From IMG/VR virus record IMGVR_UViG_2718218360_000013: a DNA stretch of 40,343 nt. One strand, written 5' to 3'. This document shows positions 4,820-6,792 of this stretch, piece by piece. Below the pieces are notes generated by a model. That model was not told the origin of the DNA. It saw nothing but the letters and a program-made list of their open reading frames with translations, and made no database searches. How positions within the stretch are numbered: position 1 is the first letter of the stretch; each line of letters begins with the position of its first letter. Both the position numbers and the translations under genes were made by a program. The DNA comes from a virus. Lineage: Duplodnaviria > Heunggongvirae > Uroviricota > Caudoviricetes.

Positions 4820-5245
4820 GTATTTACCTTCCTTAAAAAGAGGTGGAAAGGCCTTTTAAAGCAGATATACGGCATCCCTGAAACCTTCGGTTTACGGGAT
4901 ACTGTAAACAGGGCCGCGAATGCCCTGCCATCGAACGGAGCGGCTGTTGCAGCGAATAAACTCGCCACTCCAAGAAATATTAATGGTGTCCCATTTGACG
5001 GAACGCAGGATATAAATATTACATCGGGGATGACGCAGTCTGTGGCTGACTCACGTTATGTTCAAAGCATTCGAAGAGGTTCAAGGTCAACGATTGGAAT
5101 GCAATATAATATTTTTGAGGTTCCTGACGGATGCGTACTTACAGGGCTTGATGTCGCTGGTGATGGTAATGCAACGGTAACCGCATATTATCGACCTGTT
5201 CAGTTTCTGATAGATGGTTCGTGGAAAACAGCTTCCAGCGCATAA
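4796..5245 (+). CDS. Silent alternative tail-fibre C-terminal cassette (Sv'-like); open frame with no start codon before 5030
   Basis: Encodes ...GLRDTVNRAANALPSNGAAVAANKLATPRNINGVPFDGTQDINITSGMTQ, parallel to the S region GLRETVNKAADALPSGGTAVAANRLATPRNINGVPFDGTLDINITSGMTQ; C-terminal YYRPVQ...W.T.SS in both. Confidence 0.6.
   Translation, partial: YAYIANQHVFTFLKKRWKGLLKQIYGIPETFGLRDTVNRAANALPSNGAAVAANKLATPRNINGVPFDGTQDINITSGMTQSVADSRYVQSIRRGSRSTIGMQYNIFEVPDGCVLTGLDVAGDGNATVTAYYRPVQFLIDGSWKTASSA
4874..4900. other. gix/hix-like recombination site, gin-proximal boundary of the invertible segment
   Basis: ATCCCTGAAACC-TTC-GGTTTACGGGAT, a dyad with AAACC...GGTTT arms as in Gin/Hin crossover sites; lies 55 bp upstream of the gin start. 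Confidence 0.55.
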
Positions 5246-5324
5246 AAGTGCAGTAGTTCAAAAAACAGATTATCTGAATAAATATATGATGATTTTGTCT
5301 TTTCAACAAAAACAAGGTGAAATA

Positions 5325-5846
5325 ATGGAGCTTATTAACGTAAAACGATATTACCCGGAACACAAACCCTATGGTGAGGATGTTCAGTATTTCCAGAGTG
5401 AGGACGGAAGGGATTTTTATGAATCTATCCCGCTTTTCACAAAGAAATACAAACTCTGTATTTCGCCTGTAACGGGTATTATCTGCTCTGTTGCTGAAGA
5501 TGTCTCTGCTTTATATCCGGCAGGTTTTACTGTTGTTGAAGTGGACGAACTGCCGGAAGGTGTGAATATTGACGGTAACTGGCAGTTTTCTGATGGCCTG
5601 ATATCAAAGGTGCCGGTAAACTGGAAGACGGTTGCTGAAAAGCGCCGCTCATCGCTGCTCCAGGAAGCCAACGAAACTGTGGATGACTGGAAAACGGAAT
5701 TAAAACTGGACATGATTAGCGATGAAAATAAATTACAGCTGACGCGCTGGATGGCGTATATCCGACAGCTTAAAGAAATGCACTTTAATGATATTGCCAG
5801 TGAGGGGCATTACCAGGCGATTCCCTGGCCGGAAAAACCGGAATAA
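5325..5846 (+). CDS. Tail fibre assembly protein (U'-like)
   Basis: C-terminus LQLTRWMAYIRQLKEMHFNDIASEGHYQAIPWPEKPE is typical of Tfa/U proteins; follows the Sv' cassette on the same strand; start chosen at MELINVK with AAGGTGA upstream. Confidence 0.75.
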   Translation: MELINVKRYYPEHKPYGEDVQYFQSEDGRDFYESIPLFTKKYKLCISPVTGIICSVAEDVSALYPAGFTVVEVDELPEGVNIDGNWQFSDGLISKVPVNWKTVAEKRRSSLLQEANETVDDWKTELKLDMISDENKLQLTRWMAYIRQLKEMHFNDIASEGHYQAIPWPEKPE

Positions 5847-5880
5847 TTCAGAGGGTGCATTCAGCACCCTTTTCTGTGGT

Positions 5881-6792
5881 TTACACTGAACTTACCGTTC
5901 TCCAGGCATTATTAATATAAATCTGAACCGGGCGATAATAGACCCCACCGATATTGTCCGCAGACCGGGAGCCGGTTTCCTGCACGTTAATTCCGGAAAG
6001 CATACAACCGGAAGGTGCGCTGTAATTCCATGACATTTCATTGCCTCCGGGTGAATGATAGCTCTGTGCTCCAAGCTGAACATTCTGTACATACCGGCCA
6101 TCTGCGGTTGACTGCGTCATTCCTGACGTGATGTTGATATCCAGCGTTCCGTCAAAAGGAACACCATTAATATTTCTTGGGGTGGCGAGTCTGTTTGCTG
6201 CCACGGCGGTTCCACCCGATGGCAGGGCATCAGCAGCCTTATTTACCGTTTCCCGTAAACCAACGTTATCGATAAAAGCGCCTTTATCCGGAATGTCTGC
6301 GCCGTTCTGCTCCCTGCGCAGGTAACGGTTATCACCTTCGCTTTTGCTGTAAACATCCAGATTATTACGGGCGGTTCCCGCATTCTCCAGGTCGGCAAGG
6401 TTCTGATCCTTCGCCAGAGCATTAACGTCACCGGGACCAAGACTGTTTTTTGTGGCAAGCGCCCCAAGACCAAGATAACCACGGGCAAGACGCTGGGCTT
6501 CCGCACCGGCATCAGCAATTTCTTTCAGGTTGTTTTTCCGGGAAAAGGCATTCGCAGCGATAATGGCTTTAATGGACAGCGTAAGCTGGTTTAACTGCGC
6601 CTTATCCGGCTGAATACTGGCTTCAGCCAGAATATTCAGCAGTTCGGCCTGGAGAATATTCAGCCAGTCCTGACCAATCCAGCTGATACCTTTTTGTCCG
6701 TCACCTTCGGTAAACCAGGTGGTGGTATTACTCTGCGCCGGTGCCAGCGCAGGCATATTCGCCACGCCGGAATTATTATCAACATGGAACAT
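5881..6792 (-). CDS. Tail fibre protein S (constant part fused to the currently expressed variable part)
   Basis: Follows gp48-like gene with overlapping TAATG stop/start; C-terminal part is paralogous to the plus-strand Sv' cassette. Confidence 0.8.
   Translation of the reverse strand: MFHVDNNSGVANMPALAPAQSNTTTWFTEGDGQKGISWIGQDWLNILQAELLNILAEASIQPDKAQLNQLTLSIKAIIAANAFSRKNNLKEIADAGAEAQRLARGYLGLGALATKNSLGPGDVNALAKDQNLADLENAGTARNNLDVYSKSEGDNRYLRREQNGADIPDKGAFIDNVGLRETVNKAADALPSGGTAVAANRLATPRNINGVPFDGTLDINITSGMTQSTADGRYVQNVQLGAQSYHSPGGNEMSWNYSAPSGCMLSGINVQETGSRSADNIGGVYYRPVQIYINNAWRTVSSV
6250..6275. other. gix/hix-like recombination site inside the S coding sequence
   Basis: TTCCCGTAAACC-AA-CGTTATCGATAA; left half matches Mu gix TTCCTGTAAACC at 11 of 12 positions as recalled. 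Confidence 0.6.

Follow-up and report, generated by a model that had tools for sequence, protein, structure and literature searches.

Introduction

Invertible tail-fibre segments are the textbook form of phage bet-hedging on host range. The Din systems that flip them combine a small serine recombinase encoded beside the segment, with an N-terminal catalytic domain and a C-terminal helix-turn-helix, and two inverted 26-bp sites made of 12-bp half-sites around a 2-bp core that is the same at both sites. In this enzyme family cleavage by each subunit takes place at the border of the half-site to which it is bound and leaves 2-nt 3' overhangs; after a rotation of 180 degrees, these overhangs must pair for ligation to take place. 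The segment studied here lies in a DNA stretch of 40,343 nucleotides, IMG/VR record IMGVR_UViG_2718218360_000013 (Caudoviricetes), hereafter called the window, whose coordinates are used throughout. It belongs to a Mu-like prophage of the Sp18 type, inserted in ureC of E. coli O157:H7 FRIK944, and one of its crossover sites carries an additional base, C4888, which probably freezes the segment, or nearly so, with the constant part of the tail-fibre gene S (Sc) expressed together with the variable tip Sv.

In the G segment of phage Mu, a constant N-terminus is fused in frame to either of two C-termini, each followed by an assembly gene of its own, U or U'. The window resembles it by the order of the genes (baseplate genes, constant part of S, invertible segment, gin, com, mom), by the homology of the N-terminus and of the tip of S, and by an assembly protein, Tfa, related to U. 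Both Mu gix sites read TTATCCAAAACC-TC-GGTTTACAGGAA, the same pattern as the window sites, which a first-pass annotation made from the sequence alone had likened to them, and the Mu core equals the TC core allele found in the family of the window. The differences are equally clear: the segment measures 1.37 kb in the window and about 3 kb in Mu, the window fibre has 303 aa and lacks the middle of the 504-aa Mu S, a single assembly gene stands in place of U and U', and the two gix are identical 26-mers in the Mu record whereas the gin-proximal site of the window has a 3-nt spacer.

Changes at crossover sites have been described in nature and in the laboratory. The Shigella flexneri phage SfMu is, like the window prophage, a natural Mu-like phage in which one of the crossover sites is altered by one base, and its authors proposed that G inversion is reduced or abolished (PMC4406740); in SfMu, whose G segment is of the Mu type with four genes, a base adjoining the core of one repeat is substituted, whereas the change of the window is an insertion which alters the spacing, and for the window a population census shows inversion in the closest relatives. 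In the Hin system, a single substitution in the core of one hix site, hence one non-matching base, blocks ligation in the inverted orientation and forces the return to the parental one (PMC4817059). These Hin mutants, and those of Cin, are engineered substitutions that keep the 2-bp spacing, unlike the 3-nt spacer of the window. In E. coli EC958, the invertible segments of Phi1, Phi2 and Phi4 have 26-bp sites inside longer imperfect inverted repeats, with TC or TT cores matched within each element, and the reads show both orientations (PMC4134206); these segments contain mirror-image pairs of a fibre tip and a downstream gene, whereas the window has a single downstream gene. Finally, the invertible host-specificity region of Sp18, with genes distinct from those of Mu, has already been published (PMC2669165). 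The switch as such is no novelty. The novelty lies in an allele, natural and widespread, whose crossover point has gained one base, and in comparative signs suggesting that this allele no longer flips.

The crossover sites and the inserted base

4874-4900: gin-proximal crossover site, ATCCCTGAAACC-TTC-GGTTTACGGGAT, 27 bp, its spacer at 4886-4888 abnormally long (3 nt) (direct reading)
6250-6275: S-side crossover site, TTCCCGTAAACC-AA-CGTTATCGATAA, 26 bp (direct reading, alignment with relatives)
4888, plus strand: inserted base C4888, the sole difference from Sakai Sp18 over window 4200-6900 (MAFFT)

Direct reading bore out the two gix/hix-like dyads that had been placed in inverted orientation at these positions, and also the earlier claim that their cores do not match. 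On the gene strand, the S-side site is TTATCGATAACG-TT-GGTTTACGGGAA, with a normal 2-bp core at 6262-6263, whereas the gin-proximal site has TTC between its half-sites; the window therefore departs from the Din systems both in the length of one site and in the identity of the cores, while the relatives described below have two inverted 26-bp sites of the regular kind. The inner half-site GGTTTACGGGA occurs exactly twice in the 40 kb, once at each crossover site and in inverted orientation. Two or more matches were also obtained in 10 of 100 shuffled sequences, and the motif count alone is weak support for the sites; it is their context that makes them convincing.

The prophage Sp18 of strain Sakai is the same element, identical to window 4200-6900 but for one base. 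Its gin-proximal site, without C4888, is AAACC-TT-GGTTT, which matches its TT core on the S side; in the relatives, this site is either AAACC-TT-GGTTT or AAACC-TC-GGTTT. Sakai Sp18 differs from the window prophage by this TT core at both sites, by its immunity region and by its insertion in sorM. In the carriers of the TTC spacer, PGAP calls the antisense open reading frame over the gin-proximal site 'frameshifted'.

Inversion in the relatives

4889-6261: invertible segment, 1,373 bp between the cores (in-silico inverted isomer matched in genomes)
4880-5064: left arm of the inverted repeat, partner of 6086-6270, 185 nt, 77% complementary (repeat search)
6086-6270: right arm of the inverted repeat, partner of 4880-5064 (repeat search)
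4889-5245, plus strand: silent alternative tip Sv', 118 codons, without a start of its own (translation, comparison with Sv)
5881-6792, minus strand: expressed tail-fibre gene S, 303 aa (open reading frame list, Sakai annotation ECs_4989)
6264-6792 and 5881-6261, minus strand: the parts of S, namely the constant part Sc and the variable tip Sv, respectively

An inverted isomer of the segment was built in silico by cutting at the cores and used as a genome query, matches being counted from 80% coverage upwards. It was found in 23 of 5,426 complete E. coli genomes, the set to which all the E. coli counts below refer, and strain Z1323MEC0002 matches it at 100% over 2,700 nt. The junctions of eight inverted genomes, of Sakai and of one phage record were aligned, and the same check was scripted on ten IMG/VR contigs. 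In the inverted isomers, the outer flanks are unmoved up to the base adjoining the core (-1) and the interiors are swapped from +12, the first difference between the arms, so that the exchange must lie within 13 bp at the core. As the mechanism of the family, homologous recombination along the 185-nt repeat was considered and rejected: all the exchanges fall in these 13 bp, and none in the longer identical runs further in. The Mu-G-like nature of the segment, advanced by the first-pass annotation, is supported by relatives in both orientations and by an exchange mapped to the core.

The cores are matched, as TT/TT or TC/TC, in 18/18 relatives readable at both sites, and both orientations occur among these matched-core relatives. 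The ten viral contigs from IMG/VR also have normal sites, with matched cores wherever both could be read. The TT/TT and TC/TC alleles coexist in the family (prophages L001-L021), the same core always being present at both sites of one prophage; that both cores have changed together implies some concerted conversion process in nature. An indel of another kind is found in L006 and L008, whose gin-proximal site has a variant outer half-site, CCCTGAAAACC, lengthened by one A at a distance from the core. Since both copies were found inverted, the system seems to accept an indel in the outer part of a half-site, in contrast to one at the core.

The inverted repeat inside the sites is real and larger than first estimated (185 nt at 77%, against about 135 bp); it is the one long inverted repeat that the search reported in the region, and it encodes the shared start of both fibre tips. 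Direct reading shows both tips to be in frame from GGT TTA CGG, and Sv' comes in frame with the constant part after inversion, so that the constant N-terminus can be fused to either of two C-termini as in Mu. Sv and Sv' share 57% protein identity. Residues 1-198 of S are 46% identical to residues 1-191 of Mu S, and the identity is 41% between its last 72 aligned residues (231-302) and residues 437-503, which form the tip of Mu S. In the inverted relatives, the Sc-Sv' fusion is an intact annotated coding sequence of 295 aa followed by the assembly gene tfa. In three of them (L007, L009 and L010), Sc-Sv' is not annotated as one gene and only a 67-aa fragment and a plus-strand hypothetical gene are given, which suggests a disruption in the constant part. 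In L006, L008, L017 and L019, both arms of the repeat begin with an identical sequence (AACGGTAAATAAGGC...), a sign that gene conversion has taken place between the tips immediately inward of the crossover sites.

4259-4819, minus strand: gin-type serine DNA invertase, 186 aa (Pfam Resolvase 1.4e-51, HTH_7 1.7e-14)

The invertase gene lies beside the segment and is transcribed away from it. Its product has the two-domain organization of the Din recombinases and is 76% identical to Mu Gin, RVST serine motif included. The same protein, WP_000904930.1, is annotated in the carriers of the TTC spacer and in the inverted relatives. The 5' part of gin, where the Din systems have a Fis-dependent enhancer in cis, aligns with that of Mu at about 80% identity and is identical in the relatives that do invert. 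Since the TTC copies and those that invert share the same Gin protein and the rest of their DNA, trans factors and any enhancer are excluded as causes, and C4888 is the only difference, in cis or in trans, from copies that flip. By eye, no clear -35/-10 pair spans the core of the gin-proximal site.

Census of the TTC allele

The distribution of the core alleles was determined by megablast with junction queries of 30-32 nt, a match requiring 28 consecutive exact bases. The TTC spacer was found at the gin-proximal site, in any orientation, in 36 genomes and 38 copies, two genomes having two copies each. The junction queries detected no genome with TTC beside an inverted interior, and none with TTC at the S-side site. 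For the TT core, 24 genomes have the window orientation and 2 the inverted one; for all cores together, the figures are 182 and 23. By subtraction, the normal-core copies are distributed 146:23, that is 86% in the window orientation, and the comparison with the TTC allele (36:0) gives p = 0.009 one-sided and 0.017 two-sided by Fisher's exact test. Both orientations with an exchange at the core are thus a property of the family, with its 23 inverted genomes, and are not seen for the TTC allele (36 versus 0). Several TTC carriers hold a second Mu-like prophage, which makes Gin available in trans, and yet no inverted TTC copy was found among them. In the contigs of IMG/VR and of the JGI metagenomes, the TTC junction was found in neither orientation, and a scan of IMG/VR gave no 3-nt spacer of any kind between these half-sites.

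The 36 TTC carriers are the 36 best matches of a search with the 2.7 kb around the segment, 33 being identical to the window and 3 having one mismatch. The window prophage and six sampled carriers make seven prophages at seven different insertion sites, and the serotypes of the TTC prophages checked are O157:H7, O26, O103 and O145:H28, strain E2865 having no serotype in its record. The presence of TTC in 36 genomes and at seven insertion sites therefore means that the extra base is real and that it is carried by a phage which has gone on moving. Could the C nevertheless be a sequencing or assembly error that hides a normal TT site? An indel of one base, in carriers many of which appear to be long-read assemblies, would fit such an error. 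An artefact would however have to place the same base in 36 genomes from many laboratories, in all seven of the copies checked at distinct chromosomal sites, and at a position where it extends no homopolymer (CCTT-C-GG), while the sister allele without C4888 is called just as consistently (24 + 2 genomes). This explanation is hardly credible and the assembly artefact was rejected.

A model for a probably frozen segment

The model that we favour starts from the normal reaction. In the family, Gin would cut both 26-bp sites at their shared 2-bp core and flip the 1.37 kb between them, thereby joining the constant part of S either to Sv, or to Sv' with the sole assembly gene behind it. With C4888 inserted, the gin-proximal site measures 27 bp and its spacer 3 nt; its half-sites would be out of register, and its staggered ends would be unlike those of the TT core of the other site. 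Two alignments of this site may be considered, one with a TT core and a shifted inner half-site, the other with a TC core and a shifted outer half-site; in either case one half-site would be out of register, and in the second the core would be mismatched as well. Either the dimer would be unable to place both of its active sites on the 3-nt spacer, or the resulting 3-nt overhang could not be joined to a 2-nt one. The strand exchange would be left incomplete and the segment would remain frozen, or nearly so, with Sc-Sv expressed, while Sv' and the assembly gene would stay on the strand opposite the late transcription through S. Such a lock is a property of one sublineage and not of the phage family.

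A different outcome is that the TTC site still works, perhaps more slowly, and that its inverted copies are missing from the databases by chance. Several facts speak for it and weigh against a lock. The family is strongly biased towards the window orientation even with normal cores, by 86% overall and by 24:2 in the TT sister lineage, against which the TTC count is not significantly different (Fisher's exact test, p = 0.17). At the rate of this sister lineage, the probability of finding no inverted copy among 36 is about 0.056, and the upper 95% bound on the inverted fraction compatible with 0/36 is 8%. The genomes of the census are not independent samples, and a consensus assembly gives only the majority orientation of a culture, so that a low rate of inversion would escape. 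The literature search found core-substitution data and papers on engineered recombinases, and no publication in which Gin or Hin was tried on gix or hix sites with 1 bp inserted between the half-sites; the biochemical block is argued from the core-mismatch data and from the geometry of the site. Finally, Cin is said to carry out a 'localized conversion', a rare recombination at mismatched cores.

On the other side, all the relatives have kept matched 2-bp cores in two allelic states, which argues for a strong constraint on precisely the feature that C4888 breaks. The TTC junction was found neither in the inverted context nor at the S-side site. In Hin, moreover, one core change suffices to block ligation in the inverted orientation (PMC4817059). 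We therefore consider a working TTC site improbable, without being far-fetched, and infer a block of the reaction: locking of the TTC segment is likely but unproven, the census being suggestive and not decisive. The proposal of the first-pass annotation that non-matching cores lock the segment receives to that extent the support of the comparative data, namely the absence of C4888 in Sakai, the matched cores of the relatives, and the 36 TTC genomes with 0 inverted.

A further explanation adds to the lock and does not compete with it. If the fibre type suited to infection of E. coli were fixed, the whole progeny would be infective for the same hosts, and C4888 could have been selected for this reason and have aided the spread of the sublineage. 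The TTC allele is as frequent as TT or more so (36 versus 26 genomes), the phage has kept moving since the mutation, as indicated by 7/7 distinct insertion sites and at least four named serotypes, and the frozen orientation is the one that predominates among the normal-core copies. The frequency of TTC could however reflect the sampling of outbreak-related Shiga-toxin-producing E. coli (STEC); we regard selection as possible but doubtful.

The single assembly gene

5325-5846, plus strand: tail-fibre assembly (chaperone) gene tfa, 173 aa (Pfam Caudo_TAP 1.9e-18)
5850-5872: hairpin rich in G+C with a run of T behind it, in the gap where tfa and S converge, terminator-like on the plus strand

The tfa gene lies downstream of Sv' and is convergent with the expressed S; its product is 28% identical to Mu U. 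It is the only Caudo_TAP gene of the segment, and the gap between its end and the convergent S stop (5881) is only 34 bp (5847-5880), which leaves no space for a second assembly gene. The earlier statement that the expressed S has no assembly gene is confirmed by these data, and here the locus departs from Mu, where each tip is followed by its own. Most of the relatives read have their two sites at the same spacing as the window, about 1,358 bp, and the single assembly gene is therefore a trait of the family and no defect of the window copy. The hairpin at 5850-5872 is likely to be a terminator common to tfa and S, and would then also be used on the minus strand.

In the present orientation, tfa is on the strand opposite the late transcription through S, and a consensus scan of the plus strand between 4820 and 5325 detected no promoter for it. 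The 80 bp upstream of tfa are almost invariant across the relatives, and conservation is therefore uninformative on such a promoter. The present orientation is that of 86% of the normal-core copies and of all the TTC copies, which have reached several serotypes, and particles of this orientation are therefore probably infective. This suggests that the Sv tip folds without a chaperone, that tfa is expressed anyway, or that another prophage supplies the chaperone.

If the lock is real, one of these three solutions, a tip that folds unaided, a chaperone made from the 'silent' strand or one borrowed from other prophages, would have to operate in the TTC phage, and the coexistence of TT/TT, TC/TC and TTC would be a record of the co-evolution of cores, or of its failure, in the invertase systems found in nature. 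We propose only tentatively that a single inserted core base is a heritable host-range lock successful in nature, the locked phage spreading among STEC with a tip that has no co-transcribed assembly gene. TTC occurs naturally and is frequent among complete STEC genomes, and its extra base at the cutting point seems to have turned off the hedge. As a natural cis-acting lock of a known switch TTC is of modest interest, but the isogenic relatives that still flip are built-in controls, and the allele offers a ready test of the need of Gin-type enzymes for 2-bp spacing and matching cores in vivo. Does host-range locking help a temperate phage to spread, and does a tip without a co-transcribed chaperone need one? 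The TTC allele is a case in which both questions may be asked. The TT/TT and TC/TC pairs and the TTC variant are also easy annotation markers for the lineages of the Sp18 family.

The prophage and its neighbouring genes

6792-7352: Mu Gp48 gene, the next gene upstream of S (Pfam)

The 2.7 kb around the invertible segment match many STEC genomes at 100%, and in Sakai the matching 2.7 kb are annotated as the Mu-like prophage Sp18. The right end of the prophage lies about 130 bp beyond the first base of the window; its left end, near 39,141, adjoins ureC (window about 39141-40343). This junction was found in one of the 5,426 genomes, that of FRIK944, in which the urease alpha subunit gene is broken by the prophage. 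The repressor-side region 38215-38966 has no match in Sakai Sp18, although its flanks match at 98-99%, and 600 bp of it are also present in about 90 other genomes. It looks like an alternative immunity module, and the G region would therefore ride on more than one backbone.

On the minus strand of window 1-937, a Mom homologue is found at 1-738 and a Com homologue within 692-937. Between gin and these two genes lies a gene of 679 aa (2120-4159, minus strand) with sialate O-acetylesterase (SASA) and DUF6645 domains, at a position where Mu has no gene; it could encode an enzyme that modifies the receptor, or be cargo. Another copy of a Mu-like prophage is inserted in the 679-aa gene in strain F8798 (L027).

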